From positions 7,755 through 71,754 of the forward strand of contig CAZJPV010000005.1 in assembly GCA_964547985.1 (NCBI GenBank): a stretch of 64,000 nt of DNA. Reading direction: 5' to 3'. Shown piece after piece: positions 35,205 through 48,816 of this stretch; the stretch's first letter is position 1, and the number at the start of each line of letters is the position of its first letter. A model generated the notes under the pieces. The model saw nothing but the letters and a program-made list of their open reading frames with translations. It was not told the origin of the DNA and made no database searches. The position numbers were made by a program, and so were the translations under genes. Source of the stretch: an uncultured Syntrophaceae bacterium. GTDB taxonomy: Bacteria; Desulfobacterota; Syntrophia; Syntrophales; UBA2192.

Positions 35205-36518
35205 CTACTCGGGGATTTTCCCGGTGAGGAGCATCCCGATCTGCCCGTCGAGCCTTGCAGCGATGGCCTTGATCTCCTCCGTGTCGGTCGATAGGAATCT
35301 CAGCAAATCGAAGCGGTTAAGACGTTCGGCTATCTGGATGAAGACCGGGCAGATGCCGAGGATCATGGCCGAGGCCACCCTCTCCGTCCATGCCTTTCCG
35401 GAGAAAAGGGGGGCAATCCCGCCACCGAAGAGTTGATAGAGGCGGGTCTCGATACCCGGTGCCGACGGGTAGTCCTTCTCATCGATGGAAGCCCCTGCGG
35501 CGGCGAGGGCCTCGATCGTGTTCAGTGCCTCCCGGAGCGGACGGTCCTCGCGAAGACCGTATCCCGCGGCCAGGGGATCGAGCCCGAGTTCCAGACACCT
35601 CTTCAGGAGGGGAAGGGCATCCTCGGACTTGCGTGAAAGAGAGATCCATCCGCCGTGATCCATCAGGAGGAACCCGTCTTTTTCCTTCTCCCCTCCCTGT
35701 CTTCGGAAGGCCGCGTAGGTCATGCAGGGGCAGGGGCAGTGGTAGCAGGCCCGGTTTCGCCCGAGTTTCCCACGGAGCGCCCCGGCAGACTCGCCGCCGT
35801 CGGCGATTCTCTTCAAAACGGGGACAAACCCCTCGGTTTTCATGGCTCCCGAGTCTCGCAACAGCTTTTCCGTCGTCTTGGACAGAGCCGGGTGATCCTC
35901 GCGGTGGGGCAGTCCCCCGATGCCGTTGAACAGGACGGCCTTGAGGTTCTTTGCCGCCATCCGGGCGGCGAGTCCAACCCTGTCGAGACTCCCGTGACTG
36001 CCGATGGAGGCCGATGCGAAGGGCGAGCTTCGATCCGCCGCCGGCCCCGTGACGATGGAGGCGCGGAATCCGGGTGCACTTCGCCTCAAGGACTGAACAA
36101 TTTCAGGTACCGGACGATCGGAGGTCTCTTGGAGCGGGACGATGGCGATGGAGCCTCGCCCGATATGGATAGCGCAGGGCTGTTCTGTTGCACCGCGGAT
36201 GACAAGAAAATCCAAACCGGCACATTTCATCTCCGGACCAGTCCGGAGCATGAAGGGCACGTGGCAGAGATGATCGTACAGGGGGGACCTGAACGTGGCG
36301 ACGAGAAGCGATGACGCCGGGGCGAAACTTCCCGTCAGTGGCCCCGTCCCAAAAACGAGGGAGTCGCTTTCATACTGGGTAAGGAGCCAGGCGCTCATGG
36401 ACGCCCCAACGAGATGTTTCCGGATCGCCTCTTCCTCGAAGTCGACCGTGTAGGACGACCGCAGGGTCAGGTCAACGACGCCGATTTTGCCGTTATAAAA
36501 GAAGGGGAAGAGTTTCAT
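35205..36518 (-). CDS. Short, divergent aldehyde:ferredoxin-oxidoreductase-family paralog (437 aa)
   Basis: AFOR_N-like N-terminus (GKIGVVDLT..., FGTGPLTGSFAPAS, CAGLDFLVIRG). A compact Cys cluster ACYHCPCPC. The C-terminal domains are much shorter than in the 611-aa AOR at 45617. Confidence 0.6.
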   Translation of the reverse strand: MKLFPFFYNGKIGVVDLTLRSSYTVDFEEEAIRKHLVGASMSAWLLTQYESDSLVFGTGPLTGSFAPASSLLVATFRSPLYDHLCHVPFMLRTGPEMKCAGLDFLVIRGATEQPCAIHIGRGSIAIVPLQETSDRPVPEIVQSLRRSAPGFRASIVTGPAADRSSPFASASIGSHGSLDRVGLAARMAAKNLKAVLFNGIGGLPHREDHPALSKTTEKLLRDSGAMKTEGFVPVLKRIADGGESAGALRGKLGRNRACYHCPCPCMTYAAFRRQGGEKEKDGFLLMDHGGWISLSRKSEDALPLLKRCLELGLDPLAAGYGLREDRPLREALNTIEALAAAGASIDEKDYPSAPGIETRLYQLFGGGIAPLFSGKAWTERVASAMILGICPVFIQIAERLNRFDLLRFLSTDTEEIKAIAARLDGQIGMLLTGKIPE

Positions 36519-37831
36519 GCGTTTATCTCAACCGGAGCCGTTTTTTGCCACCGGAAACGGATCTTCGCCGCGCTGTAAGGGCATCGGTCCACGCAGCGCA
36601 GGCACATGATGCACTCCATCATGGGGATCTTCGGTGAGACGCCTTCACGGAGCTGGCTCGCGTCGATGATGCCCACGGGGCAGACCTCGGCGCACTGGAT
36701 GCAGGAGAACTTCTTGCACTTGCGCGCCCCGATAACGATCTTGAGGAGCCTCAGCAGGCTGGCTATGCCGAGGGTCGCCCCGACAGGGCAGAGGTAACGG
36801 CACCAGGACCTGCGCTCGGCGATCTCCGTTGCCGCCAGGGCCGGGACAATGGCCAGCTCGGCGCTTTGCATGAAGGACTGAACCCCGTAGGAGCGGCACA
36901 GTGTCCCGATAGGACAGACGGTGCAGAAGGCCTGAAATCCAAGGACGGCGCTTCCACCCACGGCACCACCCAGGATGCCGTACTTGGCCATGCGGCTCTT
37001 CAGGAAATTCGGCCAGCCCAGCTTCTTCGGGGTGATCTTGTCCACCAGGTCCAGCACGAAGCCGAAGGGGCATACCCAGCCGCAGAAAACCCTCCCGAAA
37101 AGAACCGTCAGGATGAGAAGGGCAAGCGCCGACGATGCGCCCACAAGGATGAGCGTCCCCGACGATGCGATGTTCTGCAGTGTCCCCGTGGGGCAGGCGA
37201 GCTCCACCGTCCCCGCCCTGAAGTAACAGAAGGTCCCCACGACGAGAATGACCAGAAAGAGAAAGGACAGAGCCTGTACACCCCACCGGGCCGCCTTGAT
37301 CCAGCGCAGGGCCTTGCCACGCGTGTAGGTTAGGGCATTTTCCGGGCAGTGCTTCACGCACAGCGGGTCGCCCTCGCAGAGGTCGCACTTGTGGATAACC
37401 TGGTTCGTAGGGTCGCGGATCGGCGCGGCCTCGGGGCAGGCCATGGTGCACAAACCGCAGTCGACGCAGAACAGGTCGTCAATCCTCACGATGCCGTCGT
37501 CGCCCTTCTCGATGGCTCGCGTGGGACAGGCCTCGAGGCACAGGGGCCTGCGGCAGTGCTGGCAGAGGACGGCGAAGTTTTTTCCGAGCTTTTCGTCGGT
37601 GAGGACCTTGACGCTTGCCTGTGCGGGGGCCACCCTGGAGACGTTCCGCGTCGAGCAGATCATCTCGCAGGTCCCGCAGCCTGTGCACTTCGCGGGGTCG
37701 AAGAGAATGTACCGGTTCCGCCGCGGCATGAAGAAGTCGGAAAACTTCTTTTTCTCCGGTACGCGGGGTCGGAGGTCCTCGAGTTTCAAGCCACTTTGCG
37801 GCTGGGTATCGGGCTTTCTTGACGCTTCCAT
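36515..37831 (-). CDS. Fusion protein: DmsB-like 4x[4Fe-4S] ferredoxin domain plus NapH/MauN-like membrane polyferredoxin
   Basis: N-terminal CTGCGTCEMIC, CQHCRRPLCLEACP, CVDCGLCTMACP and CDLCEGDPLCVKHCP. Then TM helices carrying CGWVCPFG and CRYLCPVG (NapH signatures). C-terminal CIQCAEVCP and CIMCLRCVDRCP. Confidence 0.75.
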   Translation of the reverse strand: MEASRKPDTQPQSGLKLEDLRPRVPEKKKFSDFFMPRRNRYILFDPAKCTGCGTCEMICSTRNVSRVAPAQASVKVLTDEKLGKNFAVLCQHCRRPLCLEACPTRAIEKGDDGIVRIDDLFCVDCGLCTMACPEAAPIRDPTNQVIHKCDLCEGDPLCVKHCPENALTYTRGKALRWIKAARWGVQALSFLFLVILVVGTFCYFRAGTVELACPTGTLQNIASSGTLILVGASSALALLILTVLFGRVFCGWVCPFGFVLDLVDKITPKKLGWPNFLKSRMAKYGILGGAVGGSAVLGFQAFCTVCPIGTLCRSYGVQSFMQSAELAIVPALAATEIAERRSWCRYLCPVGATLGIASLLRLLKIVIGARKCKKFSCIQCAEVCPVGIIDASQLREGVSPKIPMMECIMCLRCVDRCPYSAAKIRFRWQKTAPVEINA

Positions 37832-37980
37832 TCTAATGTTCTGTTTCGTCTATTGGGTCTATTTCGTCCTGTGAAGACCCTTCCTCCCCTGCTTTCCCTC
37901 TCCCCTGGCGGGAGCGGATTGAGGTGAGGGGGTCTTTTAAATCTTCCGGTCCCTGTACCCTGGTCCCGGGACCCTGCTTC

Positions 37981-38442
37981 TTATGCGTTGCGGAGCAGGT
38001 AGATCTCCCGCCTGCACGACGGGCACGTTTCGAGCGCCGTCAGGACGTTTGCCGGCTCTGTCTGGAGCCTTCCGAAGACAAATTCCTCCACGGGCACGGC
38101 CACAAAGAACCGGCCGCAGGCCTCGCAGCGCTTGGCGTTTTCGACCACGTTTTCCCCGATGGCCGCCTCGCGGAGCTTGCGGATCAAGTCCCGGCAGCTC
38201 ACCCCCTGGGGGCAGACGTCGGTGCCGCTGTTGCACTCCGTGCAGTACCAGATGTTTTTGTCCTCGACGATGTTTTCGCCCGTGAGCGTCTTCTTGATAA
38301 TGCCCCGGGGCGACATCTCGATGCCGAAATTCACATACATCTCCGCCATGGGACAGGCGGCGACACAGCGGCCGCACTCGACACAGCCTAGGGCCCCTGA
38401 AACTTGCTTCGCTTCCTCGATCTTATCGTGCCGTCGCTTCAT
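37981..38442 (-). CDS. Small Fe-S protein, HdrC-like, with a C-terminal Cys-pair ribbon
   Basis: CVECGRCVAACP and CTECNSGTDVCP, followed by CEACG...CPSC. Confidence 0.6.
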   Translation of the reverse strand: MKRRHDKIEEAKQVSGALGCVECGRCVAACPMAEMYVNFGIEMSPRGIIKKTLTGENIVEDKNIWYCTECNSGTDVCPQGVSCRDLIRKLREAAIGENVVENAKRCEACGRFFVAVPVEEFVFGRLQTEPANVLTALETCPSCRREIYLLRNA

Positions 38443-40474
38443 AGCGCTCCTTTTCCACGCTTACGGCGCAGACCTTGTATTCGGGAGTCTTGCAGGCCGG
38501 GTCGAGCACCGGGTTCGTGAGCCTGTTGGCCCTCGCCTCGGTGAAGTGGAAGGGGGCGAAGATGCTCCCCTTTGCCACGCGATCGGTGATCTTGGCCGTC
38601 GTCACGATGCTCCCCCGCCGGGAGCTGACTCGAATCCTCTCCCCCTCGCGGATGCCGAGCGCGGCGGCATCGGTGGGGTGGATCTCCACGTAGGCCCACT
38701 CGATCTCGCGGTTGAGAAAGGGCGAACGCCGCGACATGGTCCCCGTGTGGTAATGGGCGAAGACGCGCCCCGTGTTGAGATAGTAAGGGTACTCCGAGTC
38801 GGGCTTTTCCGCAGGCGGCCTGTAGTCGGGGATGACGAACCGGCCCAGCCCGCGGGTGAACTTCTCGCCGTGCAGAAAGCGCGTCCCCGGGTGGTTTTCA
38901 TCGGGGCAGGGCCACTGCAGTCCTACGCGCTCCAGGCGGTCGAAGCTCACCCCGGCGTACGCCGGGACGAGATGGGCATATTCCGACATCACATCGGCGG
39001 GCGAAGGGTAGTCGAAGGCGAGTCCCAGGGCCTTCCCCAGGAGGCAGAGGATCTCGAAGTCGCCCTTCGCGGCTCCGGGCGGGTCGATGGCCTTGTGAAG
39101 GAGCTGGAAGCGCCTCTCCGTGTTTGTGTAAGTCCCGGTCTTTTCGGCAAAGCAGGCTCCCGGTAGGACCAGGTGCGCGAATCTCGCCGTTTCCGTCAGG
39201 AAGATGTCCTGGACGACCAGGAAATCGAGCCTCTGAAGGGCCTCCATGACGTGGTTCACGTCGGGGTCGCTCAAGCAGGGGTTTTCGGCCATGATGTACA
39301 GGGCCCGGATGTCCTTTCCCGCGGTATTGATGAGCTCCGTCACGGTGAGCCCCGGTTTGTCAGAGAGATCTGTTTTCCAGGCCTTCTGAAACTTCTCCCT
39401 TACGGCGGGGTCGGACACGCCCTGGTAGCCGGGGTAGAGGTCCGGCAGGGCCCCCATGTCGCAGGCGCCCTGAACGTTGTTCTGTCCGCGAAGCGGGTAG
39501 ATTCCCGAGAAATGCTTTCCCACATGGCCGCAAAGCATAGCCAGATCGCAGATGGCGATCACGTTGGCCGCCCCGCAGGCGTGCTGGGTAATGCCCATGC
39601 AGTAGACGATGGCAGCGTTTTTAGCCTTCGCGTAGGTCTCGGCCACCGCGCGGATGACCGATTCGTCGATGCCTGTTTCCTTCGCGGCCTTCTCCACGGG
39701 CCATGCCTCGAGGAAGGTCTTTAGGTTCTCGAAGTTTTCCGTCCGCTTCTCGATGAAGCCGACATTGTGGAGCCCTTTGTCGCTGATGTGGCGCATCATT
39801 CCCGCCAGAAGCGGGATATCGGTTCCAGGGTTCAGCCTCAGCAGCCTGTGGGCGTTTCGGGCCACCGCTGTTTCCCGGGGGTCGATAACGAACATCTTCG
39901 CTCCCCGGTCGAGGGCCTTGTAGACCTCGCCCATGAGAACGGGGTGAGTCTCGGCGGCGTTGGAGCCTACAAAAACGATGCAGTCGGCGCCGGCAAGATC
40001 AGAGATGGAGTTGGTCATGGCGCCGCTGCCCAGCGTCTGGAGCATGCCCACCGTGGTTGCCGCGTGACAGAGCCTGGCGCAGTGGTCCACGTTGTTGGTC
40101 TTGAAGGCCGCCCGGATGAGCTTCTGGAAGAGGTAGTTCTCCTCGTTGGTGCACTTGGCCGAGGAGAGCCCGCCCACGCTGTCAGGGCCGTATTCCCCGG
40201 CCGTCTCACTAAGCTTCTGCGCCGCAAGGTCGATGGCCTCCTCCCAGGAGATGGCCTCGAAACGGTCACCCTTGCGCAGAAGCGGCGCCGTCAAGCGCTC
40301 GGGGTGATGGACGAACTCGTGGGCGAACCACCCCTTCACGCAAAGGGATCCCCGGTTCACGGGGTTCTCCCGGTCGGGGTAGGTGGCCGTGGCGCGGCCC
40401 TCCTCCACCTTGAGGATGAGCCCGCATCCCGTGCCGCAGTAAGGGCAGATGGTTCGGATAAACTCAGGTTTCAT
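38423..40474 (-). CDS. fdhA: Formate-dehydrogenase-type Mo/W-bis-PGD catalytic subunit, Cys variant
   Basis: N-terminal [4Fe-4S] motif CPYCGTGC...C. Active-site stretch NNVDHCARLCHAATTVG...GSGAMTNS has Cys where FdhF has Sec. 683 aa, uninterrupted. Confidence 0.88.
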   Translation of the reverse strand: MKPEFIRTICPYCGTGCGLILKVEEGRATATYPDRENPVNRGSLCVKGWFAHEFVHHPERLTAPLLRKGDRFEAISWEEAIDLAAQKLSETAGEYGPDSVGGLSSAKCTNEENYLFQKLIRAAFKTNNVDHCARLCHAATTVGMLQTLGSGAMTNSISDLAGADCIVFVGSNAAETHPVLMGEVYKALDRGAKMFVIDPRETAVARNAHRLLRLNPGTDIPLLAGMMRHISDKGLHNVGFIEKRTENFENLKTFLEAWPVEKAAKETGIDESVIRAVAETYAKAKNAAIVYCMGITQHACGAANVIAICDLAMLCGHVGKHFSGIYPLRGQNNVQGACDMGALPDLYPGYQGVSDPAVREKFQKAWKTDLSDKPGLTVTELINTAGKDIRALYIMAENPCLSDPDVNHVMEALQRLDFLVVQDIFLTETARFAHLVLPGACFAEKTGTYTNTERRFQLLHKAIDPPGAAKGDFEILCLLGKALGLAFDYPSPADVMSEYAHLVPAYAGVSFDRLERVGLQWPCPDENHPGTRFLHGEKFTRGLGRFVIPDYRPPAEKPDSEYPYYLNTGRVFAHYHTGTMSRRSPFLNREIEWAYVEIHPTDAAALGIREGERIRVSSRRGSIVTTAKITDRVAKGSIFAPFHFTEARANRLTNPVLDPACKTPEYKVCAVSVEKERYEATAR

Positions 40475-41316
40475 GGCTTCTTTTCCGTGCTGTCGACCCA
40501 GTCGGGCATGTCCTGCCCGGGGCGGGGCTCCTTGATGAAGTCAGAGAGGACGGGGGATTTACGATCCGCGTCGATCCCTGCCTCATAGTTGTAATCCCTC
40601 TTCAGGGCTTCCCGCATCGATAGCTGGAGCGTCATGAGGGGGATGCCTACCGGGCAGGCCTCCTGACAGGCCCCGCAGGCCACACAGGTATCGGAGAGGT
40701 GAAAAGCCCGGATGAGATGGAAGGTGGTCATTTCTGCCGGGACGACGCCGCGCTCGACCCAGACTTCGTCCTCGAGCTTGCAGGGTACGCAGACGCAGAT
40801 GGGGCAGGAATTGCGGCAGCCGTAACACTTGATGCAGCGCCTGAGCTGTTCGGCCCACTTCTCCATGCGTGTGCGGGCATCGCCCTCCAGGTAGGACTTC
40901 ACCCGCTCGTCGGTCAGGGGATCCACGCCCTCCACGGCGCTCCCCGCGTCGAGCTTCTGAGGGTAGGGACGGTTGCAGAGGCATGCCTTCGCCTGGGCGG
41001 AGTCGCAGGCGTAGCCGAGGGTGAGGAGCCTCTCGCGGTCGACCTGGTTTCGCTTGACGAGCTCCACGACGGCCCTCTCGTCGCATCCCCGCATGACGAC
41101 AACCAGCCGCCAGGGCTGCGGCCTCTCCAGCAGGACCGCCCGGGCCATCTTGGCGAGCAGCCACTTGGGCTCGAGCACGAGCTTGTCGATCTCCGCCGGA
41201 GCCGTAAAGACGTGTGGCTGAATCACATCCCAGTAGCCCTTTTTGAGTGCTAGAACGCCGTCGGCTTGCTTCCTCTCGAGGAGCTCTCTCGCTCTCTGTC
41301 TTACCTGTTCCAGCAT
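40471..41316 (-). CDS. Fe-S cluster protein (AsrA/sulfhydrogenase-beta-like Cys pattern)
   Basis: CIKCYGCRNSCPICVCVPC and CVACGACQEACP. The stop overlaps the fdhA start (4 nt). Confidence 0.6.
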   Translation of the reverse strand: MLEQVRQRARELLERKQADGVLALKKGYWDVIQPHVFTAPAEIDKLVLEPKWLLAKMARAVLLERPQPWRLVVVMRGCDERAVVELVKRNQVDRERLLTLGYACDSAQAKACLCNRPYPQKLDAGSAVEGVDPLTDERVKSYLEGDARTRMEKWAEQLRRCIKCYGCRNSCPICVCVPCKLEDEVWVERGVVPAEMTTFHLIRAFHLSDTCVACGACQEACPVGIPLMTLQLSMREALKRDYNYEAGIDADRKSPVLSDFIKEPRPGQDMPDWVDSTEKKP

Positions 41317-41357: not shown

Positions 41358-41786
41358 TCACTGTTTTACGGGCACCCATGCCCCCATCGAGGGCAGGCCC
41401 TCGAGCTCCCTGTAAAAGCCCAAAATCGTTTCCACGTACTGGTGCCACTCGTGGGTCGTGCCGAAGCCCAGCAGCAGCCGGTTCCCGCCGATGCCCGTCG
41501 TGTCGAGGAGCGTCTTGAGAAGCTCCAGACGCTTGAGGGCAGGGTGGTTGGCGTCGTTGAAGCGGCACCCGCCGACGTGGCAGCCCAGGACGGCCACCCC
41601 CGTTACCCCACTGGCGAAGGCCCGTATCACCAGGTCGGGTTCGACGTAACCCGCGCACTCCACCGGGATCACCCGGAAAGATACAGGCAGCTCGATACGC
41701 TGTCGCCCGGCGGCGTCTGCCCCGAAGAGGCCGCACCAGCGGCATGCGAAGACGAGGATTTTCACGTTGTTTGAATCGGCGGACAT
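41358..41786 (-). CDS. mvhD: MvhD-like (methyl-viologen-reducing hydrogenase delta subunit family) protein
   Basis: ILVFACRWCGLFGADAAG ... VIPVECAGYVEPDLVIRAF ... GVAVLGCHVGGC matches the FlpD/MvhD pattern. Confidence 0.85.
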   Translation of the reverse strand: MSADSNNVKILVFACRWCGLFGADAAGRQRIELPVSFRVIPVECAGYVEPDLVIRAFASGVTGVAVLGCHVGGCRFNDANHPALKRLELLKTLLDTTGIGGNRLLLGFGTTHEWHQYVETILGFYRELEGLPSMGAWVPVKQ

Positions 41787-41787: not shown

Positions 41788-43494
41788 TCAGCGTACCTCC
41801 CGGAAGGCCCGCCGTATCATCTGGCAGACGGCCCGGTCATTGAGCTCGGGCATCTGCATGGCCCCGTTCGGGCAGACGGAGACGCAATTGCCGCAAGCCT
41901 TGCAGCGGATCTTGATGACACGGCTCACGGAACGATTTCCCATGCGTTGGAGCCTGCAGGCCCCGTAAGGGCATACGGCCATACAGTTGCCGCATCCCGT
42001 GCAGGCATCTGAGTTTACGCTTGCGTGGCCAACCTTCTGGTCCGGCATGCGGCTCATCGCGAGGGCCGAGACCATTTTCTTCCCGAGGAAGGAGGCCGCC
42101 TTCATGGCCGCCGCTTCGCCCTGGGCGATGGCCTGGTCCGACGAGACGGGCCAGCGGGCCGTCCCGCAGATGAAAATACCGTCATTTAGCGTCTCCACGG
42201 GATGGTTGGGGTAGACCTCTGCGAAGAACCCGTATTTGTCCACGGGGATCTCGAGCATGCGGGCGAGCGCCGCGCTCTCCGGGTCGGCAATGAGGGGCGT
42301 GCTGAGGACGACAAGGTCCGTTTCAATGGTCCGGGTCACTCCCGAGATGGCGTCGAAGACCTGGACCTCGCCGACCTGTCCTTCACCGAGCACCCCGGGC
42401 GGCCGCGCGGCATCGAAACGGATGAACTGGACGCCCTTCTCAAGTGCCTTCCGATAATACGCCTCCAGAATGCTGCCCGGCGTCATGATGTCGCGGTGCA
42501 GGACATAGGCCTTCGCGCCCGGAATCTCGTCGATGATCCGCATGGCGTTCTTGAGGGACAGGGGACAGCAGATCGTGGAACAGTAGGGCCGATCAATATT
42601 TCGCGCGCCAACGCACTGGATGAAGACGGCCGTCCGGCAGGCGGGTTTCCCCGTCGAGAACTGCCTCTCCATCTCCATCTGGGTGATCACGTTTTTGAGC
42701 TTCCCGTAACCATGCAGCCCCTGGGGGAAAAGGATTCGTGCCCCCGTTGCCAGAACGATGGCGCCGACGCGCAGACCGGTTTTTCCTTCGGGACCTGCCA
42801 GGGTGACCTTGAAATCGCCGGCCTGGCCTTTGACGGAAACAACCCTTGTCTTCCCGTAGAAGCTGATATGGTGGTTTCTGCTGACCTCTTCGAGCCGCAG
42901 ACCGATCTTCTCAGAGCCGGATTCTCCGCCGGGATAGGCCTGCGATATGATGTTGAGAAGTCCGCCGGGAGCTGATCCCCTCTCGACGAGGTGGACCCGG
43001 AACCCGAGTCTGGCCAATCCGCAGGCGGCCGAGAGGCCGGCAGGCCCTGCGCCGATCACCAGGGTTTCCTGCTGCAGCCGGACGGTGATGTCTTTCGAAT
43101 CCTGCATGTTCTGAAGCAGCGCGAGCTCCATGTCGAGCTGGCTTGCGGCTTTACGGAAAGCGCCCTCCGGGTCCTTGCGGTGAATCCAGGCGCAACCTTC
43201 CCGCAGATCTACTGTGCGCACATGCCGGAGCTCGGCGCCTTTTTTTACGAGTCCAAGCCGGACGAATTCCATTCTGCCGTATGGGGAGCAGGCGCCGATA
43301 AGGACCTTGCCGATCCCGCGATCGTGAATGGCGGAAAGGGCCCGTTCAACGTCGGAAGCAAGGCATAGGGATTCCGTGATCGTTACGCCATCCACGGCAG
43401 GATCGGCATTGAACCTCTTCCGGATGGACTCCAGATCGATGACCTTACCGATCTCACCGAAGCAGTCGCAGAGAAAGACGGTGACTTTGGGCAT
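41788..43494 (-). CDS. hdrA: HdrA-like flavoprotein 2 (N-terminal Cys-rich domain, FAD domain, C-terminal 2x[4Fe-4S])
   Basis: VIGAGPAGLSAA, FIQCVGARN...YCSTICC, CTGCGNCMAVCP and CKACGNCVSVCP. Confidence 0.85.
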   Translation of the reverse strand: MPKVTVFLCDCFGEIGKVIDLESIRKRFNADPAVDGVTITESLCLASDVERALSAIHDRGIGKVLIGACSPYGRMEFVRLGLVKKGAELRHVRTVDLREGCAWIHRKDPEGAFRKAASQLDMELALLQNMQDSKDITVRLQQETLVIGAGPAGLSAACGLARLGFRVHLVERGSAPGGLLNIISQAYPGGESGSEKIGLRLEEVSRNHHISFYGKTRVVSVKGQAGDFKVTLAGPEGKTGLRVGAIVLATGARILFPQGLHGYGKLKNVITQMEMERQFSTGKPACRTAVFIQCVGARNIDRPYCSTICCPLSLKNAMRIIDEIPGAKAYVLHRDIMTPGSILEAYYRKALEKGVQFIRFDAARPPGVLGEGQVGEVQVFDAISGVTRTIETDLVVLSTPLIADPESAALARMLEIPVDKYGFFAEVYPNHPVETLNDGIFICGTARWPVSSDQAIAQGEAAAMKAASFLGKKMVSALAMSRMPDQKVGHASVNSDACTGCGNCMAVCPYGACRLQRMGNRSVSRVIKIRCKACGNCVSVCPNGAMQMPELNDRAVCQMIRRAFREVR

Positions 43495-43498: not shown

Positions 43499-44713
43499 TT
43501 ATTTCTTCCCTTCCATGATCGAACGGAGCGCGGCCGAGGAGGCGTGAACCGCCGACTCCGTCACATGCGCTGGTGTCATGATGTGGCCGTAGGACTCGAA
43601 TAAACGTGTGACTCGACCTTCCGTCGCCAGTGTGGGGACGGCGTAACCCCGGGGCAGGGCGGGGATGGTCGGCTGCAGATTGCCGTTGAGAATGACCATG
43701 TCGAACTTCCAGATCTCGCGTGTCTGTGTCAGGGTGTCCTCGAATTTCACGGCGATGCCGTCACTGCCGGGCAGGGGATAGATGAGAGAAGGCCGCCCCC
43801 GGACAGCCCGTACACCTTTTCCTTCGATAGCGCGGATTGCGTACCCGTAGTAATCCCGACCGACGGTACGAAGGTCCGTGTAGAGAATGACGCAGTCGAT
43901 GGCAGGGTTTCTGCGCCTGACCCACTGGGCCTGCTTGAGGGCATGCATGCAACAAACAGCCGAACAGTGGGGCAGGAACTTCAGGTCGCGGGCACCGGCG
44001 CACTGGATGAATGCGATATTCCGGGGCACGGCCTTGTTTGAGTGCCTGAGGATGGTTCCCCTGTTTTCGCCCGCCTCAGCCTTCCAGGCCTCGAATTCAA
44101 GCGAGGTCATGATGTCCGGGTGGGTCCCCCAACCATACTCCTTCAGGGGTTCGAGGCTCACCTCGGAGAATCCCGCAGACCATATGACTTCGTCAACCGG
44201 GACCTGGAACCGCGCTTCTTCTCGATCGAAGTCGATGGCCTTCGTGGGGCACACATCCGCGCAGGAGCGACAGTCTCCGCAGCGATCCCGGTCGATGATG
44301 TAGAACGGAGGATAAGCGTGCTCCCAGATCGGCCGGGCGGCCCCCCGCGGACAGGCGTCTTTGCAGCGGCCGCAAAAGATGCATAGCTCGGGGTCGATCA
44401 CTGGTGCTAATTTCAAGATGACGGCTTGGAAGACGTGATGGTTTTTTTCCAGTGATTCCACTCTTGCGAGCGTGTGAACAAAAATGGAGGGGTTTTCCTT
44501 GCAGCGGCGGATCTCCGCCCAGAGGGTGCAAAAAGCGCAGTGGTCCGTTGGATAGTACTTGTCAAGTCTTGCCACAATCCCTCCAAGGTCGAATCCGTTA
44601 TCGACGAGATGGACGTGTTGACCTGCAGCAGCTAAATCAAGGGCTGCCGAGATACCGGAGATACCGCCGCCCATGACGAGAATCGTTCTCTTTTTCGTTT
44701 CCGTTTTTTGCAT
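43499..44713 (-). CDS. hdrA: HdrA-like flavoprotein 1 (FAD domain with inserted ferredoxin domain)
   Basis: VMGGGISGISAALDLA, YPTDHCAFC, CIFCGRCKDACP, CGDCRSCADVCP and FIQCAGARD...HCSAVCC. Confidence 0.85.
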   Translation of the reverse strand: MQKTETKKRTILVMGGGISGISAALDLAAAGQHVHLVDNGFDLGGIVARLDKYYPTDHCAFCTLWAEIRRCKENPSIFVHTLARVESLEKNHHVFQAVILKLAPVIDPELCIFCGRCKDACPRGAARPIWEHAYPPFYIIDRDRCGDCRSCADVCPTKAIDFDREEARFQVPVDEVIWSAGFSEVSLEPLKEYGWGTHPDIMTSLEFEAWKAEAGENRGTILRHSNKAVPRNIAFIQCAGARDLKFLPHCSAVCCMHALKQAQWVRRRNPAIDCVILYTDLRTVGRDYYGYAIRAIEGKGVRAVRGRPSLIYPLPGSDGIAVKFEDTLTQTREIWKFDMVILNGNLQPTIPALPRGYAVPTLATEGRVTRLFESYGHIMTPAHVTESAVHASSAALRSIMEGKK

Positions 44714-44765
44714 ATCCTTAAATTTGGATCCGATACCCTGAACCTTTGACCCTGTCCCCTTTTCT

Positions 44766-45467
44766 TTATTCTTCCTCGTCTTCCTTGATCAACCCGTAAT
44801 GCTCCCCCAGCTTCCTCACGCGCCCCTCGAGCCAGTCCATAAAGCCCTCGTCGCGCCCGTGACGGCGCCCATCTTCCTCCTCGAGGCGCATGGCGACGCG
44901 CTTCTCGGGGGGAGGCATCCTTTTGACCTTCTCGTAGACCGTGACGATGGACTTGGGCTTCGTGGGGCATCGCCTCTCGCAGGCATTGCAGCCCGTGCAG
45001 GGGCCCTCGAGGACCACGGGGTATTTGTCCTTCTCGAGCACGATAGCGTCGTAGCGGCAGGCATCGTAACAACGGGTGCAGTCTTCCTGACCCGTCCAGG
45101 CGAGGCAGGTATTGCGGTTGATGAGGGCATTGCCGATGTCGACCTCATCGCGGGAGATCTTTGCGATGGCCCCCGTCGGACATTCCTTGATGCAGGCCAT
45201 GCAGAAGATGCACTTCTTGTGCTCGAGGATAGGGGTGCCGAAGCAGGTGATCCCGCCGGCGAGTCCCGCCGGGTGGATGGCGTCGACAGGGCAGACATCC
45301 ACGCATCGGTAGCAGCGGGCGCAGGTTGCGAGAAAGGATTTTTCCTCGAGGGATCCTGGCGGGCGCGGGATCTCTCTGGCCCCGCTGACCTTAAAGAGGC
45401 CGAACAGGAGGGTCGAGACGGCTCCGCTGACGAGAAGATGGATCGTGTCCCTTCGTGAAAAGTCCAT
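44766..45467 (-). CDS. NapG/MauM-like periplasmic polyferredoxin with a twin-arginine-type N-terminus
   Basis: MDFSRRDTIHLL plus an h-region, then RPPGSLEEKSFLATCARCYRCVDVCP (the NapG signature RPPGA..E..F...C.RC). Three further Cys clusters follow. Confidence 0.75.
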   Translation of the reverse strand: MDFSRRDTIHLLVSGAVSTLLFGLFKVSGAREIPRPPGSLEEKSFLATCARCYRCVDVCPVDAIHPAGLAGGITCFGTPILEHKKCIFCMACIKECPTGAIAKISRDEVDIGNALINRNTCLAWTGQEDCTRCYDACRYDAIVLEKDKYPVVLEGPCTGCNACERRCPTKPKSIVTVYEKVKRMPPPEKRVAMRLEEEDGRRHGRDEGFMDWLEGRVRKLGEHYGLIKEDEEE

Positions 45468-45616
45468 GAGTGCAGGTATCCCCTGATCGTTCCAGGTTCC
45501 GTATCAACGACCCCTCTCCCCCTCGGTTACGGACCGATGTGAGCATACAAAAAGAACCCATAAAATGCAAGGGCGGGTGAAAAGAATCACCCGCCCCTAC
45601 ATAAAGCATCCAACGG

Positions 45617-47452
45617 TTAGAGGTTGTGTTTCTTCCTGGCCGCGTTGACGTCGGCAATCAGGTAATCGAGACCGCAGGCCTTGAGGGTGGCCTCCGTCGG
45701 GATGCCCTTGGCGTCCCAGCCGAAGAATCCGTATGTGTCGGCTTCCATCTTCTTCTGATCTTCGTCGGTGAAGACGGCGTTCTTTTTTGGTCCTGCGGGC
45801 AGCTTCTCCGCGTACATGCGTTTCGGCAGCCGGTCATCCTTGGAGCTGACGCCCTCGCGGACGTTGAAGACGCGCTCTGCTGTGATGATCCGCTTGGCCG
45901 TCGTCCAGTAGTCCTCCGGTTTCATGGCCCAGCCGCACAGCGGGTTGAGCATGTCGGTGACGATCTTGTCCGAACCGGCGCCCCAGACGAGAATCGAGGT
46001 AAAGGTGCACATGCAGAGCGAGTCGGCCATCGCCGTCATGGCCAGTGCCTTGGAGCCCTGTCCTTCGTGGTGATCGCCGCCGTTCGTGCCCATCGTGTAG
46101 CTGTAGGCACGGATCTTGTCGCCCCGCGGATCGTGGGCCGCCAGTTCCCGGCCCTTTACGACGTTGGCATAGGCCTCGGAGCCCTTGCCGATCTGTTTGG
46201 ACATCTTGGCCACGCCCTGGGCCATGAACTTTCCAGCCTTGCCTTCCTTGTGGGCGATCCTGCGTATCATCTCCATGTAGGTGTCGCCGTCACCCCACTT
46301 GGGTTTCAGGCCGTCGAGGTCCGCAGGCTTCAGGGCACCCTTCTCTAAAGCTTCTGTCACGAAGGCCAGGGTGCCTCCCGTGGAGATGTTGTCGAGACCG
46401 TAGGCGTCGCAGGCCTCGATGAGGGCGATCATCTGGCCGAAGTCCTTCATGCCCAGGTTGGAACCCATGAGCCCGCCGGACTCATACTCGGGTCCCTCGG
46501 CGACGAGACCCTTGTACTTCCCGTCGCGAAGGACGCCCAGCTTCAGACAGTGGGTCGGGCAGTTGGTGCAGGCCGCGTGGCGCTTCCAGAATCTCCGGGC
46601 CGCTTCCTCGCCACCGATATTGACGATGTCGGGGTACCAGGTGGTCTGGAAGTTCTTCGTGATGAGCGAGCCGTGGAGGAAGTGCTTGAGTTCCAGGAGG
46701 CCGCCCGTTCCCCAGCGCTTGATGCCTTCCCAGGCTTCTTTCTGTACGTTGGTTGTCTTGGCGGTTCTAGCGGCTGTGAGGAAATTCGCGCTGTCCACGA
46801 CGGGGACGGCGTACTTGGTGCCCCGCACGGCGAAGCCTTTCAACTTCTTGTTTCCGAACACCGGGCCGACGTTGCTGCGCGACGCGGCGCGGTAACGCTC
46901 GACGATGATGTTGGCCTGAAGCGCCCCGTTCTCGCCGGCCGGGCCGATGACAGCCGTCCGGATGAGAGGATCCTTCATGTCACTGATCATCATCGCATGG
47001 GCTTCTTCGGTGGTCTTGCCCCACATCTTCGAGGCGTCCTTGAACTCTACCTTGTCGTTGACGACGGAAAACCACACGGGCTTCTTTGCGCGGCCCTTGA
47101 TGTAGATGCCGTCCCAGCCGGCCCACTTGATCTCTCCCGCGAGGTGGGCTCCCGTCTCAGCGTGGCTCAAAAGACCCGTGAGGGGGTTCTTGTTGACGAA
47201 GCATGTCCTGTAAGAGACGGACATGGTCCCGGACAGGGGCCCCGGCCCCACGAAGACGAAGGCGTCCTCATCTAAGGGATTCTTGCCGGCCTTGTATTCC
47301 GTCACGGCGTAGTAGGCGCCCAAGCCTCTTCCACCGATGTACTGCTGGAGAATTTCTTCGGAAACCGGCCGTGTCTTGTAGGTCAGTGTGCTGAGGTCGA
47401 TTTCCAGTACCTTTCCGAAATTTCCGCCTTTGGGTGCTGCCATAGTGATCAC
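45617..47452 (-). CDS. aor: Tungsten-type aldehyde:ferredoxin oxidoreductase family enzyme (611 aa), no signal peptide of its own
   Basis: GKVLEIDLST..., YIGGRGLGAYY, GPGPLSGT, ACTNCPTHC and the full-length AOR domain order. Confidence 0.9.
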   Translation of the reverse strand: MITMAAPKGGNFGKVLEIDLSTLTYKTRPVSEEILQQYIGGRGLGAYYAVTEYKAGKNPLDEDAFVFVGPGPLSGTMSVSYRTCFVNKNPLTGLLSHAETGAHLAGEIKWAGWDGIYIKGRAKKPVWFSVVNDKVEFKDASKMWGKTTEEAHAMMISDMKDPLIRTAVIGPAGENGALQANIIVERYRAASRSNVGPVFGNKKLKGFAVRGTKYAVPVVDSANFLTAARTAKTTNVQKEAWEGIKRWGTGGLLELKHFLHGSLITKNFQTTWYPDIVNIGGEEAARRFWKRHAACTNCPTHCLKLGVLRDGKYKGLVAEGPEYESGGLMGSNLGMKDFGQMIALIEACDAYGLDNISTGGTLAFVTEALEKGALKPADLDGLKPKWGDGDTYMEMIRRIAHKEGKAGKFMAQGVAKMSKQIGKGSEAYANVVKGRELAAHDPRGDKIRAYSYTMGTNGGDHHEGQGSKALAMTAMADSLCMCTFTSILVWGAGSDKIVTDMLNPLCGWAMKPEDYWTTAKRIITAERVFNVREGVSSKDDRLPKRMYAEKLPAGPKKNAVFTDEDQKKMEADTYGFFGWDAKGIPTEATLKACGLDYLIADVNAARKKHNL

Positions 47453-48195
47453 CTCCCCTTCTTGGTCTTCACAGAAACGACCCGCTTACCTTCAACGTTC
47501 GGGTAGAACAGGAGGTTTGCGAGATCCTTACCCGCCTCTTCCGGCGTCACAGAACGGTAAGCCATGTTCACGCCGATTCCCACCGGTCGGCCCATGAGGC
47601 AGGGCCCCTGGGGGTTTCCGGCTTGATCGTGGCAGGCCTTGACGCATTGTGGGTCACCGCCGCACAGGTCGCAGATGAGGGGCTGACCCGTGTCGGGGTT
47701 TCCACGGATGTACTTGGCCGGGCAGGCCTCCTGACACTTCATGCACTTGGCGCCCAGACAGATTTTCTCGTTGAGCACAATGCCGTTGGTCTTGGCATCA
47801 CGGGTAATAGATTTGGGTGTGGTCGGGCAGGCCGCGATGCACGGGGCATCGTCGCACTGCCAGCAGATGACCGGTAAGTCGATCATATCCTTGTGCTTGT
47901 AAACCCAGACCCGGGACATCGCGGGCCGGGCGGTTCCGGTGTGGAACAGCGAGCAGGCCAGCTCGCAGCTCCGGCAGCCCGTGCAGTTCTGGCGCTCGGC
48001 GAAGAGGTACTTCTGCGCGTAGGGTGCGGTGCCCGCAACAGCCTGGACCGAGTACTGGGCCTCGGCCTTCTTCGGTACCATACCACCGACAGCAGTCAAC
48101 ACGATGGCACCTCCCGCCGCTGTAGCAGTTCCCCTCAGAAAGTCACGACGAGTCGTTTCCTTCTGGAGGACATCAGGCAGTTTCTTTTCGTCCAT
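47449..48195 (-). CDS. Tat-signal-bearing 4x[4Fe-4S] ferredoxin subunit (DmsB/HybA/DsrO-like), translationally coupled to AOR
   Basis: TTRRDFLRG plus an h-region and AEA cleavage-like site. CTGCRSCELAC, CWQCDDAPCIAACP, CMKCQEACP and CDLCGGDPQCVKAC. ATGA overlap with the aor start. Confidence 0.85.
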   Translation of the reverse strand: MDEKKLPDVLQKETTRRDFLRGTATAAGGAIVLTAVGGMVPKKAEAQYSVQAVAGTAPYAQKYLFAERQNCTGCRSCELACSLFHTGTARPAMSRVWVYKHKDMIDLPVICWQCDDAPCIAACPTTPKSITRDAKTNGIVLNEKICLGAKCMKCQEACPAKYIRGNPDTGQPLICDLCGGDPQCVKACHDQAGNPQGPCLMGRPVGIGVNMAYRSVTPEEAGKDLANLLFYPNVEGKRVVSVKTKKGR

Positions 48196-48324
48196 GTCTA
48201 ACCTCCCTTATATTTGCCTCGAGTTAAGGACTTGGAAACTCAATGAAGAGTATAGGGTACACCTCCTTTCATGCGTTTTGTTTCCTCCTGTTTTCTCATT
48301 TCACGGTCGACCCGGCGGAGCGGG

Positions 48325-48816
48325 TTACTTCATCTTGCTGGTGTAAACGTAGTCGTTCGACTTCTGGGCCTCGTGGCACTTGATGCACTCATCAATCTTG
48401 CCCTCCTGTTCGACCTTACCGCTGGTTTTGTACTGGGCCCAGAACCAGTCACCGCCCTTGGGGTTGTAACCCTTCACCTTGTACATGACGTCGATGAACT
48501 TGAGCTTTTTGTTTTTGTCGAAATTATCCTGCACGATCATAGAGCCGTCGGCGAACTTGCCCTTCTTGGCCTTGATGGAATCGAAGGCCGTCTGGTTGAC
48601 GTAGGCCGTCAGAAAAGCGCCGTGCGGTTCCGGTCCCTTGTACTGGGCCTCGGTACCGGGCCACATCTTCCAGCTCTGATAATTATTTTTCTGGACGAAG
48701 TTCCAGACAGCCGTGCCGTCGGCCGCCGGACCCTTCTTTGCCTGGGCGAAAAGGATGCCCGACAGGGCAAGGGTGACGGTGAGCACGATGGCGAGAAGGA
48801 GCCATTCTTTTTTCAT
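48325..48816 (-). CDS. Periplasmic monoheme c-type protein (cytochrome-P460-like fold guess)
   Basis: Signal peptide and a single C-terminal CIKCH. The beta-rich body (GDWFWAQYK) resembles P460-domain proteins as I recall them. Confidence 0.6.
   Translation of the reverse strand: MKKEWLLLAIVLTVTLALSGILFAQAKKGPAADGTAVWNFVQKNNYQSWKMWPGTEAQYKGPEPHGAFLTAYVNQTAFDSIKAKKGKFADGSMIVQDNFDKNKKLKFIDVMYKVKGYNPKGGDWFWAQYKTSGKVEQEGKIDECIKCHEAQKSNDYVYTSKMK

Follow-up and report, generated by a model that had tools for sequence, protein, structure and literature searches.

Do the twelve genes that lie together on the minus strand between positions 35205 and 48816 of the window, the 64,000-nucleotide stretch of DNA analyzed here, encode one redox complex or separate systems? 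The preliminary description had read them as one operon that couples a tungsten enzyme of the aldehyde:ferredoxin oxidoreductase (AOR) family to an electron-bifurcating core, to formate/CO2 and to the quinone pool. We slightly favor the reading in which the operon would encode a single membrane-spanning bifurcating or confurcating redox complex. All twelve open reading frames (g1 to g12, numbered from the 5' end) were found with exactly the coordinates described, and Pfam and NCBIfam agreed with the domains assigned to them. Overlaps of 4 nt were found between g2 and g3 as called (47449-47452), g8 and g9 (40471-40474) and g11 and g12 (36515-36518), and g9 and g10 overlap by 20 nt (38423-38442); starts and stops are coupled within g2/g3, g8/g9/g10 and g11/g12. 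The g8/g9 and g11/g12 overlaps are ATGA, and the g2/g3 overlap, formerly given as ATGA, reads GTGA on the minus strand. As measured before, the gaps at g5/g6 (43494/43499) and g6/g7 (41786/41788) are 4 nt and 1 nt, and those at g7/g8 and g4/g5 are 41 nt and 52 nt. The short gaps or overlaps previously claimed for the whole operon describe most junctions, but three gaps are of 129 nt (g1/g2) and 149 nt (g3/g4 and g10/g11); since internal promoters are possible in gaps of 129-149 nt, these count against the single-complex reading.

In the divergent intergenic region 5' of g1, a promoter-like site (TTGACT-18-TATATT, 49184..49213, minus strand) is a consensus match only, and the total count of such sites in the region is not above that in shuffles. 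The divergent gene on the plus strand (49297..49668) encodes a ModE-like HTH protein (TIGR00637, 5.9e-15, under the curated cut-off), a candidate molybdate/tungstate-responsive regulator; 20 related loci also have a homolog upstream, encoded on the opposite strand. In the space separating the convergent genes g12 and dksA, a 15-bp hairpin found on the plus strand (35156..35188) is a possible bidirectional terminator that may also serve the minus-strand operon.

Synteny was compared across 75 loci, on contigs from one genome per species. Forty-one other genomes carry the complete g2-g11 set, 39 of them in strictly colinear order, an arrangement far above chance; this linkage supports the cluster as one conserved unit, with the NapG-like g4 and the NapH-like g11 as members, as had been proposed. 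Complete loci span Syntrophales, Desulfomonilia, Desulfobacterales and Syntrophobacter, and the cultured organisms bearing the cluster include Desulforapulum autotrophicum HRM2 and Desulfosarcina widdelii. We found g11 downstream of the AOR gene on 43 of 44 sufficiently long contigs, and g1 in 26 of 56 eligible loci. A distant variant (L082) has an HTH_1 gene immediately upstream, and in variants probably from Desulfovibrionaceae the g7 and g8 homologs are fused.

The g2 product (47449..48195) is a predicted Tat-exported four-cluster ferredoxin, the WorS/AorA-type small subunit of AOR. Its top PDB matches were WOR5-S (6x6u_B, 3e-29; 6x1o_B, 6e-29) and AorA (8c0z_C, 1e-22); given this resemblance to small subunits in AOR-enzyme structures, g2 should bind g3. 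The Tat signal, which matches TIGR01409, comprises (S/T)RRxFL(K/R), a hydrophobic region and an AxA site in all full-length orthologs inspected (47-89% identity), and it recurs in a variant with only 41% identity in the AOR. The large subunit g3 (45617..47452; AFOR_N 4.4e-59, AFOR_C 7.1e-94) has no signal peptide and is probably carried out of the cytoplasm by g2. The protein described as a 611-aa AOR is indeed of this family, but it more likely starts at the ATG at 47443, 5 nt past the g2 stop and after a GGGGAGG Shine-Dalgarno sequence; public gene calls use this start, giving 608 aa. Searches matched g3 to P. furiosus AOR (1aor, 4e-94, 319.5 bits), to other characterized AORs (184-273 bits) and to BamB (4z3w, 4.5e-41, 144 bits), and its identity to E. 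coli YdhV was only 26%. The bit scores place g3 far from BamB, and an identity as BamB, which the preliminary description had raised, was rejected. In alignment to the P. furiosus AOR type, g3 keeps the equivalents of Glu313 (in EGPEYES), His448 and Cys288/291/295/494; by these matches, it is a tungstopterin enzyme of the P. furiosus AOR type.

Two other products carry export signals. The g4 polyferredoxin (44766..45467) is NapG/MauM-like, with four clusters and a Tat-like signal or anchor (NapG NF007012, 2.2e-21; TIGR00397, 1.1e-18; both under cut-off), and shares the RPPG motif and the four Cys motifs with E. coli NapG, to which it can be aligned. The SRRxx(I/L) motif, a hydrophobic stretch (19 residues in g4) and A(K/R)ALPRPPG are kept at the N-terminus of all orthologs. 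The accessory g1 (48325..48816) is a predicted exported monoheme cytochrome of the P460/c'-beta family (PF16694, 9.7e-16; cytochrome c'-beta entries of the PDB also match, but weakly); its hydrophobic N-terminus (residues 6-24) is of the Sec type, and it has one CxxCH motif (CIKCH). The earlier placement of g1, g2 with g3, and g4 opposite Hdr/Fdh is supported by these predicted signals.

On the cytoplasmic side, the HdrA/MvhD core adjoins FdhA, as proposed, judging from domain matches and conserved linkage. The HdrA-like flavoprotein g5 (43499..44713) aligns to residues 145-499 of HdrA (5odc_A, 1.6e-65) and has the thioredoxin-reductase core with an inserted two-cluster ferredoxin domain, but not the N- and C-terminal HdrA domains. 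The second, g6 (41788..43494), matches 9sfi_A (2.2e-69) and 5odc_A (9.2e-66), each as two stretches, and has an N-terminal domain, the thioredoxin-reductase core and a C-terminal ferredoxin domain but not the inserted one, its Pfam Fer4 matches being confined to residues 485-553. Jointly, g5 and g6 make up one full HdrA domain set, and both contain CxGxR(D/N)...CSxxCC. The equivalent of Lys409, a residue whose role in HdrA has been described (PMC6405883), is retained in both g5 (CCMHALKQA) and g6 (CCPLSLKNA). The MvhD-type [2Fe-2S] adaptor g7 (41358..41786) matches FlpD (PF02662, 2.4e-32) and VhuD (NF045873, 5e-22). The 281-aa Fe-S protein g8 (40471..41316) corresponds to only one half of methanogen FdhB, the C-terminal one (7bkb_E residues 233-391, 3.7e-33; 9t1s_M, 1.3e-32; 8rvu_E, 3e-25) and lacks the F420/FAD-binding half. 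The HdrC-like two-cluster protein g10 (37981..38442) has a C-terminal CxxC...CxxC tail and matches HdrC models (3e-14 to 5e-11, under cut-off) and QmoC (1.7e-8).

The formate dehydrogenase catalytic subunit g9 (38423..40474; FdhA) is of the Cys type (CARLCH; RGQNNVQG) and predicted to be cytoplasmic, having no signal peptide; it passes the FdhA equivalog cut-off (TIGR01591, 2e-251, 835.8 bits vs 666). Since g3 keeps Glu313, His448 and the Fe-S ligands and g9 passes this cut-off, both are predicted to be catalytically competent. FdhA occurs at 44 of the 46 eligible loci, but it is absent from the otherwise retained cluster of Desulfosarcina alkanivorans PL12 and from the probable Desulfovibrionaceae variants, so formate is not the universal third couple. 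The g8 gene is kept even in loci without FdhA.

The membrane protein g11 (36515..37831; Fer4_11 + NapH/MauN) is a fusion of an AorA/WorS-like four-cluster ferredoxin domain (residues 40-183; 8c0z_C, 2.5e-26), a NapH-like four-helix domain (residues 206-431; TIGR02163, 3.6e-31, under the curated cut-off, as was every NapG, NapH and HdrC match) and a C-terminal two-cluster domain. Hydropathy and charge bias predict an N-in/C-in topology. Both CxxxCP motifs can be aligned with E. coli NapH, which lacks the five additional invariant Cys residues at the outer face of g11. To our knowledge, NapH is heme-free and electron transfer across the membrane through it has never been demonstrated; the AlphaFold2 model of g11 has a pLDDT of 41.8 and thus gives a trans-membrane route no structural support. 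The adjacent g12 (35205..36518) is a mini-AOR that matches AFOR_N only (3.1e-32). Compared with the g3 family, it has lost EGPEYE, DPRGD...GGDHH and ~170 aa; the [4Fe-4S] Cys motif is retained, and the catalytic and most pterin-binding segments are gone. Its AlphaFold2 model (pTM 0.82, pLDDT 75.8) had AORs as best Foldseek matches (TMq 0.75-0.76), and as modeled, g12 is catalytically degenerate with the AOR fold kept. A profile search found 81 representatives (E<=1e-30).

From the parts list, export signals, topology and conserved linkage, as read from sequence, we infer how the complex would assemble, its use of quinone, its trans-membrane route, its direction and its physiological substrate. 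On the outer side would be g3 on g2, the exported g4 and, in some lineages, g1; g11 would be the NapH-like four-helix protein in the membrane, with its AorA-like domain docking the catalytically dead g12 on the inner side. The cytoplasmic Fe-S domains of g11, two in number and so offering two separate docking points, would connect to the flavin bifurcation core, formed by the g5/g6 heterodimer, MvhD g7 and g10; g8 and g9 would be the source or sink of the mid-potential electron pair. FdhA would oxidize formate, the electrons would travel via g8 and then MvhD, and the pair would be split at the HdrA flavin. The high-potential electron would reach menaquinone via g10 and the NapH module; because domain searches of the cluster detected no CCG domain of HdrB/HdrD type, g11 is the only candidate for this exit. 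The low-potential electron would leave by the inserted ferredoxin domain of g5 for the AorA-like domain in g11 and for g12, and cross to g4, g2 and the tungsten site. In reverse, aldehyde and menaquinol oxidation may drive CO2 reduction to formate. If true, one machine would join a periplasmic acid/aldehyde couple, membrane menaquinone and cytoplasmic formate/CO2 in sulfate-reducing and syntrophic Desulfobacterota. Periplasmic aldehyde production or use has no evident purpose, which counts against a single complex.

Two co-regulated, physically separate systems are an unlikely alternative source of the same gene set. In that case, g1-g4, g11 and g12 would form a periplasmic AOR:menaquinone oxidoreductase of Class V type, respiratory or detoxifying; g5-g10 would form a soluble cytoplasmic Fdh-MvhD-HdrA complex passing formate electrons to ferredoxin and an acceptor encoded elsewhere; and both would be co-transcribed because both need a tungsten or molybdenum cofactor. 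The halves resemble stand-alone Class V tungsten oxidoreductases and the methanogen Fdh-MvhD-Hdr complex, but the cytoplasmic half, with no CCG domain found, lacks its own high-potential acceptor site, and the six cytoplasmic clusters of g11 with the docked mini-AOR would be superfluous for a simple periplasm-facing quinone reductase. The 149-nt gaps fall precisely at g3/g4 and g10/g11, and WorS-WorL pairs are also found by themselves or as extra tandem copies (L076, L003 and L011); nevertheless, the genes are interleaved, the napG-like gene lying 5' and the napH-like gene 3' of the hdr/fdh genes, not adjacent, in 39 of the 41 complete loci. Shared control by the recurrent ModE-like regulator and the dispensability of FdhA in some loci also suit two systems, whereas core genes and order survive in the variant with 41% AOR identity despite different regulator and cofactor-gene neighbors.

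It is rather improbable that the membrane-spanning complex exists as proposed but with a tungsten enzyme that catalyzes a very-low-potential, non-aldehyde/acid reaction on another periplasmic substrate, comparable to that of BamB on benzoyl-CoA. The methanogen Fdh-Hdr-Fmd supercomplex is one Hdr-coupled, low-potential, non-aldehyde case and favors this possibility. Bam likewise hard-wires HdrA-type bifurcation to a tungsten enzyme with such a reaction (bioRxiv 10.64898/2026.04.10.717634), and CsWOR41L, the only Class V large subunit assayed, oxidized none of 46 aldehydes (PMC13328260). The g3 clade is moderately related to characterized AORs by the scores above; however, g3 is much nearer to bona fide aldehyde oxidoreductases than to BamB or YdhV, and the Glu313 and His448 equivalents are kept in an identical EGPEYES context. 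An all-cytoplasmic Bam-like complex, soluble or membrane-attached, with vestigial, chaperone-binding or anchoring Tat-like N-termini on g2 and g4, is very improbable: all flavin-based bifurcating complexes known to us act on the cytoplasmic side, and remnant Tat-like motifs occur on cytoplasmic proteins such as E. coli NapF, whose SRRGIL is not accompanied by a hydrophobic stretch, but g2 orthologs carry the full tripartite signal, g4 has the hydrophobic segment missing from NapF, g1 has a c-type heme motif that needs periplasmic maturation, and tatA is embedded, with pterin-cofactor genes, in a variant cluster.

Full-text literature searches found no characterized complex of this composition, in agreement with the preliminary description, although the locus itself is on record: the 2009 D. 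autotrophicum HRM2 genome paper lists Aor5 among the hdrA-locus neighbors (PMC2702500), and the locus was apparently drawn there without interpretation. Periplasmic tungsten oxidoreductases of Class V are defined by a small subunit with a Tat signal, and a 2026 classification confines them to the YdhV clade (PMC13328260); g3 has a Tat-type partner yet lies outside that clade. The term Bam-like suits the wiring logic, but not the AOR, which is far from BamB and, with g2, predicted to be periplasmic, unlike the Bam enzyme; nor does the cluster contain the BamD/HdrB CCG subunit or the BamGHI/NuoEFG module. Similarity to known systems is found in the core: g8 resembles FdhB of the solved methanogen Fdh-Hdr complexes, and the complementary HdrA halves g5 and g6 parallel BamE, the fused HdrA dimer of Bam, whose inserted ferredoxin domain passes electrons on to BamC and from there to BamB (bioRxiv 10.64898/2026.04.10.717634).

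The twelve genes (g1 to g12, in the order of transcription) were found as minus-strand open reading frames at exactly the coordinates that the preliminary description had assigned to them, as evident from the open reading frame list and the translations. The reading frames overlapped at g2/g3 (4 nt), g8/g9 (ATGA), g9/g10 (20 nt) and g11/g12 (ATGA, the stop codon of g11 overlapping the start codon of g12), and were separated by 1-4 nt at g5/g6 and g6/g7, by 41-52 nt at g4/g5 and g7/g8, and by 129-149 nt at g1/g2, g3/g4 and g10/g11. One detail had to be corrected; the ATGA reported at 47449-47452, in the g2/g3 overlap, is GTGA in the sequence. The more likely start of g3 is the ATG at 47443, which lies 5 nt past the g2 stop codon, is preceded by a GGGGAGG Shine-Dalgarno motif and is also used by the public gene calls. 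A promoter/terminator scan revealed a promoter-like site upstream of g1, a strong hairpin after g12 and no terminator-like site in the minus-strand intergenic gaps of the operon; the scan totals were not above those of shuffled sequences, so the scan says little about operon structure and is weak evidence. A small gene encoding a ModE-like helix-turn-helix protein was located at 49297-49668 on the plus strand, divergent from the operon. In 20 related loci, a homolog of this gene was likewise located upstream and in the opposite orientation, suggesting control responsive to molybdate or tungstate.

Additional features were observed around the operon. Just downstream of it, a cytochrome b561-like membrane protein was encoded at 34106-34501 on the minus strand, and a DksA gene at 34716-35117 on the plus strand was convergent with g12. 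Farther away, the region of about 14000-22000 had a G+C content of 0.44-0.51, compared with about 0.57-0.63 in the remaining window, and may be an acquired island. A 687-residue protein with cytochrome c7/c3-type multihaem motifs was encoded at 2278-4341 on the minus strand.

The large subunit, g3 (608 residues), carried both the AFOR_N (4.4e-59) and AFOR_C (7.1e-94) Pfam domains. Its best solved relative was the aldehyde oxidoreductase (AOR) of P. furiosus (1aor, 319.5 bits), whereas BamB (4z3w_A) showed a score of 144.3 bits (4.5e-41). In a residue-level alignment with 1aor, the EGPEYES motif (Glu313), His448 and the four cluster cysteines of the CxxCxxxC...C motif were all conserved, so that g3 has the domains, the [4Fe-4S] cysteines and the Glu313/His448 pair of the AOR-type family. 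From these domains and residues, g3 is predicted to be an AOR-type tungsten oxidoreductase. Two other assignments were considered. That g3 is a BamB was ruled out by the wide bit-score margin in favor of P. furiosus AOR among the PDB matches and by the retained AOR catalytic residues. Membership of clade 41, whose large subunits are of the YdhV type and about 700 residues long, was likewise ruled out by pairwise identity and model score; a BLASTP comparison with the E. coli ydh operon gave 107 bits and 26% identity between g3 and YdhV, and the YdhV equivalog model matched only residues 8-222, with 170.6 bits against a cut-off of 868.

The small subunit, g2, contained four Cys motifs and, past its first ~60 residues, was closest to solved small subunits of AOR-family enzymes. 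In particular, WOR5-S matched at 3e-29 to 6e-29, followed by AorA (1e-22) and 9mqx_E (6e-22), whereas BamC matched only at 2e-10. The N-terminus matched the Tat-signal model TIGR01409, and the (S/T)RRxFL(K/R) motif, the hydrophobic stretch and the AxA site were retained in every full-length g2 ortholog read (47-89% identity). These features were also kept in a distant variant of the cluster, in which the AOR is only 41% identical to g3. Because g2 is homologous to solved AOR-binding subunits and is translationally coupled to g3, we infer that g2 carries g3 along during export. A natural g2-g3 fusion would have been proof of such co-export; the apparent fusions of 843 and 913 residues in two related loci (L054, 9287-11815, and L076, 9077-11815) were rejected, as a single stop codon separates the in-frame genes. 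The first gene product, g1, belonged to the Cytochrome_P460 family and had a hydrophobic Sec-type N-terminus and one CxxCH motif; its PDB matches were weak and led to cytochrome c'-beta entries. Genes for ResB and CcsA-type cytochrome c assembly proteins (system II; 49776-52060, plus strand) adjoined the operon, of which g1 encodes a c-type haem protein.

The g4 protein matched NapG/MauM below the curated cut-offs (NapG, 76.2 bits versus 269). Upon alignment with E. coli NapG, we found a Tat-type N-terminus, the RPPG motif and all four Cys motifs, and the SRRxx(I/L) motif, the hydrophobic stretch and the A(K/R)ALPRPPG segment were conserved in every g4 ortholog. The g5 and g6 proteins are, judged from domain coverage, complementary HdrA-like proteins. 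Whereas g5 covered HdrA residues 145-499, corresponding to the thioredoxin-reductase core and the inserted ferredoxin domain, g6 contained the N-terminal domain, the core and the C-terminal ferredoxin domain of HdrA and was devoid of the inserted one. Both proteins retained the CxGxR(D/N)...CSxxCC motif and the equivalent of HdrA Lys409, a residue that contacts the flavin N5 (PMC6405883). The g7 protein was identified as MvhD (FlpD, 2.4e-32). The identity of g8, described earlier simply as an Fe-S protein, could be sharpened; it matched the C-terminal half of FdhB from the solved methanogen Fdh-Hdr complexes (7bkb_E, residues 233-391 of 414, 3.7e-33), and its N-terminal ~100 residues had no Pfam match. 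The g9 protein scored above the FdhA equivalog cut-off (TIGR01591, 835.8 bits versus 666), compared with only 164-178 bits for the NuoG models, and its selenocysteine position was occupied by Cys-His. The g10 protein was HdrC-like, with a score below the cut-off. Among the Pfam matches of all 12 proteins there was no CCG/HdrB domain; only the small HdrC-like g10 was present. NuoE- or NuoF-type domains were absent from the 12 proteins, as were the domains of a WorABC (Bfu/NuoEFG-like) bifurcating module. The candidate for bifurcation in this cluster is of the HdrA type.

The membrane protein g11 (36515-37831, minus strand) was a three-part fusion. Residues 40-183 were closest to AorA (2.5e-26), and residues 206-431 matched NapH/MauN (3.6e-31), although with scores below the cut-offs (106.9 bits versus 234 and 108.6 versus 213). 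The alignment with E. coli NapH revealed four helices, two CxxxCP motifs and a C-terminal two-cluster domain, and refined the fourth helix to about residues 323-340. Hydropathy and charge bias likewise predicted four helices, with both Fe-S domains on the cytoplasmic side. We also observed five invariant cysteines (C202, C213, C303, C306 and C312) at the predicted periplasmic ends or loops of helices 1 and 3, all of which are absent from E. coli NapH; an additional metal cluster may be bound by them on the outer face. With a pLDDT of 41.8 and a pTM of 0.29, the AlphaFold2 model of g11 was too poor to judge whether the five residues cluster together.

In g12, a short paralog of g3, Pfam detected only the N-terminal AOR domain. 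Its AlphaFold2 model (pTM 0.82) matched AOR structures at a TM-score of 0.75. A family-to-family alignment of g12 with g3 showed that the EGPEYE segment, the DPRGD...GGDHH region and about 170 residues were lost, and that the CxxCxxxC...C cluster motif was kept, which points to a non-catalytic Fe-S protein. Most likely, g12 pairs in this role with the AorA-like domain of g11, and would then be a clear case of an enzyme fold reused as a non-catalytic Fe-S subunit.

To follow the cluster across genomes, a one-genome-per-species scan with an alignment of the AOR clade was used, which gave 75 loci, and synteny was counted by tblastn with all twelve proteins on contigs that were long enough. The g4 gene was present in 65 of 67 such contigs, g11 in 43 of 44, the FdhA gene in 44 of 46 and g12 in 22 of 25. 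All of g2-g11 were present in 41 loci, and 39 of these were strictly colinear; with the coordinates confirmed and the synteny kept in related genomes, the twelve-gene unit proposed in the preliminary description proved to be real. The g1 gene was accessory and was found in only 26 of 56 loci. The proteins closest to those of the window came from Syntrophaceae and Syntrophales metagenome-assembled genomes, and the hosts included Syntrophales, Desulfomonilia, Syntrophobacter and Desulfobacterales. Among cultured hosts were Desulfosarcina widdelii PP31 and D. alkanivorans PL12, and a search for the NapH fusion added Desulforapulum (Desulfobacterium) autotrophicum HRM2, which had the full g2-g12 set (CP001087.1, about 1.636-1.650 Mb).

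Several variants were present among the related loci. In D. alkanivorans PL12 (L057, 16151-17554), the FdhA gene was missing and the FdhB-like gene was kept, followed directly by the HdrC-like gene. The distant variant with the 41% identical AOR (L082, 1269-18664; also L079 and L083), whose host is probably a member of the Desulfovibrionaceae judging by the closest named proteins, kept the genes for the Tat-signal WorS, AOR, NapG-like, both HdrA-like, HdrC-like, WorS::NapH and mini-AOR (360 residues) proteins; MvhD was fused to the FdhB-like protein, and FdhA was missing. The mini-AOR gene was followed there by a gene for an uncharacterised protein of 317 residues, thiF, tatA and a MogA-like gene, and then by a pair of moeA genes, of which one encodes a periplasmic-binding-protein-like domain, and a further gene for a 400-residue protein with only the AFOR_N domain was located upstream. 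Extra WorS-WorL pairs, in tandem or alone, were also found (L003, 5396-7971; L011, 9249-13641; L076, 9305-11809); in some Syntrophaceae, the tandem extras preceded the P460 gene, and the pair in L076 stood alone without the Hdr part. In 14 related loci (e.g., L035, 5822-7780), a 650-residue protein with two ThiF/MoeB-like domains was encoded about 3 kb upstream of g2, and in 8 related loci an additional AOR paralog of 743 residues was encoded upstream.

Our best available hypothesis, drawn from sequence and from analogy and in line with the preliminary description, is that the cluster encodes a membrane-spanning, Hdr-coupled complex. Its mechanism was reasoned from the solved Fdh-MvhD-Hdr complexes and the 2026 structure of the class II benzoyl-CoA reductase (Bam), in which a fused HdrA dimer (BamE) bifurcates and supplies BamC, and through it BamB, from the inserted ferredoxin domain (bioRxiv 10.64898/2026.04.10.717634). 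Electrons from FdhA would pass through g8 and MvhD to the flavin of a g5/g6 heterodimer. The high-potential electron would then travel through the HdrC-like g10 to the NapH module and menaquinone, and the low-potential electron would leave through the inserted ferredoxin domain of g5 to the AorA-like domain of g11 and to g12, cross the membrane, and reach the tungsten site by way of the NapG-like g4 and g2. The potentials are about -430 mV for formate, about -75 mV for menaquinone and about -580 mV for the acid/aldehyde couple. On such textbook values the forward direction would be mildly exergonic, and at the low formate of syntrophy the reverse, from aldehyde and menaquinol to formate, would be feasible. 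Since FdhA was missing in some genomes in which the FdhB-like protein was kept, formate appears to be a common but not an obligatory partner. The least secure part of the proposed chain is the passage across the membrane, to which the five outer-face cysteines of g11 are a possible clue.

A bolder version, which we hold to be doubtful, is that the HdrA-type core sends or receives electrons of about -500 mV across the membrane to the periplasmic tungsten enzyme through a haem-free, Fe-S-only conduit of the NapH type, using the five outer cysteines of g11 and with g12 as a docking adaptor. Such a complex would be the first flavin-based bifurcating machine with a low-potential branch that leaves the cytoplasm, and would link the reactions of formate and menaquinone on the inside with very-low-potential chemistry beyond the cell membrane. 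The bifurcating complexes compared here (Bam, methanogen Hdr-Fdh and bifurcating WOR) are described as cytoplasmic; a periplasmic tungsten catalytic module, if true, would join bifurcation and a transmembrane redox loop in a new manner. How electrons are moved among the menaquinone pool, formate and low-potential carriers has long been an energetic question for hosts of this kind, which are syntrophs and complete-oxidising sulfate reducers. We expect the finding to be unexpected for specialists, and the presence of the cluster in the cultured D. autotrophicum HRM2 and D. widdelii makes it directly testable.

Parts of the cluster have been listed before. In the 2009 genome paper on HRM2, the legend of the figure on hdrA loci names "Aor5, tungsten-containing aldehyde reductase", a ferredoxin and an Fe/S protein, fdhB-fdhA are placed in two hdrA loci, and HdrA1 to HdrA3 are each encoded by two or three genes; the paper offers no interpretation of these loci (PMC2702500). 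We infer from it that one of the HRM2 hdrA loci is this cluster. Full-text literature searches, whose coverage excludes most subscription journals so that absence is not proof, returned no paper interpreting the cluster, and it was not mentioned in the papers on D. multivorans, Smithella, ANME and Desulfatiglans.

To place the cluster among known systems, we compared it with Bam of Geobacter metallireducens (BamBCDEFGHI). The two share their basic wiring, which leads from an AOR-family tungsten subunit and its polyferredoxin partner to an HdrA-type bifurcation module equipped with an MvhD adaptor. In both, HdrA units are used as a pair; the BamE-type double unit and the BamF-type adaptor were found here as separate proteins, with g5 and g6 in place of the fused BamE. 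In contrast, the large subunit is BamB there and AOR-type here, and the small subunit has three clusters there and four Cys motifs plus a Tat signal here. BamD (HdrBC-like, with CCG domains) and BamGHI (NuoEFG-like) are absent here, where FdhA and an FdhB-like protein are found instead. Membrane and periplasmic parts of the NapG and NapH type occur only here, where the prediction also puts the catalytic module outside the cytoplasm. Of the Bam-like architecture initially proposed, the wiring logic was therefore retained, whereas bit scores and domain searches spoke against the BamB identity, BamD and BamGHI.

The formate dehydrogenase-MvhD-HdrABC(-Fmd) complexes of methanogens (7bkb, 8rvu and 9t1s) are similar in that genes for FdhA, an FdhB-type Fe-S protein, MvhD and HdrA, matching the solved subunits, are adjacent here. 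The low-potential branch of the methanogen supercomplex feeds a tungsten or molybdenum pterin enzyme through a polyferredoxin. The differences are that only the C-terminal half of FdhB has a counterpart in g8, two complementary proteins take the place of a single HdrA, the HdrC-like g10 scores below the cut-off, and the terminal modules here are membrane-bound and periplasmic; as HdrB is absent from the cluster, there would be no heterodisulfide site. With NapGH, g4 aligned with NapG and g11 residues 206-431 with NapH. However, the scores were below the curated cut-offs, the g4 and g11 genes lie six genes apart, NapC is absent here, and g11 has an extra N-terminal AorA-like four-cluster domain in addition to the five invariant outer-face cysteines; no napA or napB was found in the window region. 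QmoABC consists of two HdrA-like flavoproteins, an MvhD-type domain, an HdrC-like Fe-S module and a quinone-facing membrane part, without HdrB. The same set of part types is present here, but membership was rejected given the weak QmoC match (NF038018, 34.3 bits versus a cut-off of 300); the membrane part is HdrE-like with haem b in Qmo and NapH-like without haem b here, and the partner is APS reductase there and AOR with Fdh here.

In a paper of June 2026, tungsten oxidoreductases were divided into five classes, in which Class IV is bifurcating (WorLSABC and Bam) and Class V has a Tat-signal small subunit and is membrane-associated; Class V was stated to occur only in clade 41, of the YdhV type, and to include no enzyme of known activity or role (PMC13328260). 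The available part of the supplement text of that study contained no Desulfosarcina, Syntrophus, Smithella or HRM2 organism names. The cluster resembles the Class V systems (YdhYVWXUT of E. coli and CsWOR41 of Cetobacterium somerae) in its Tat-signal small subunit, which implies a periplasmic orientation in both, in its extra ferredoxin-like and membrane subunits, and in the tat and pterin-cofactor genes nearby. The Class V hallmark is thus present, as g2 carries the Tat signal and a NapH-like membrane subunit is encoded in the cluster. In contrast to Class V, g3 is far closer to P. furiosus AOR than to YdhV, which by pairwise scores places it outside clade 41; the membrane subunit is a YdhU-type cytochrome there and NapH-like here, and only here is a cytoplasmic Hdr/MvhD/Fdh module attached. 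With this hallmark, a large subunit unlike YdhV and an HdrA-type core, the g3 system straddles Classes IV and V and falls outside the clade to which Class V was confined. The Class V hallmark outside the YdhV clade, together with a bifurcation core, therefore crosses the 2026 split of the two classes.
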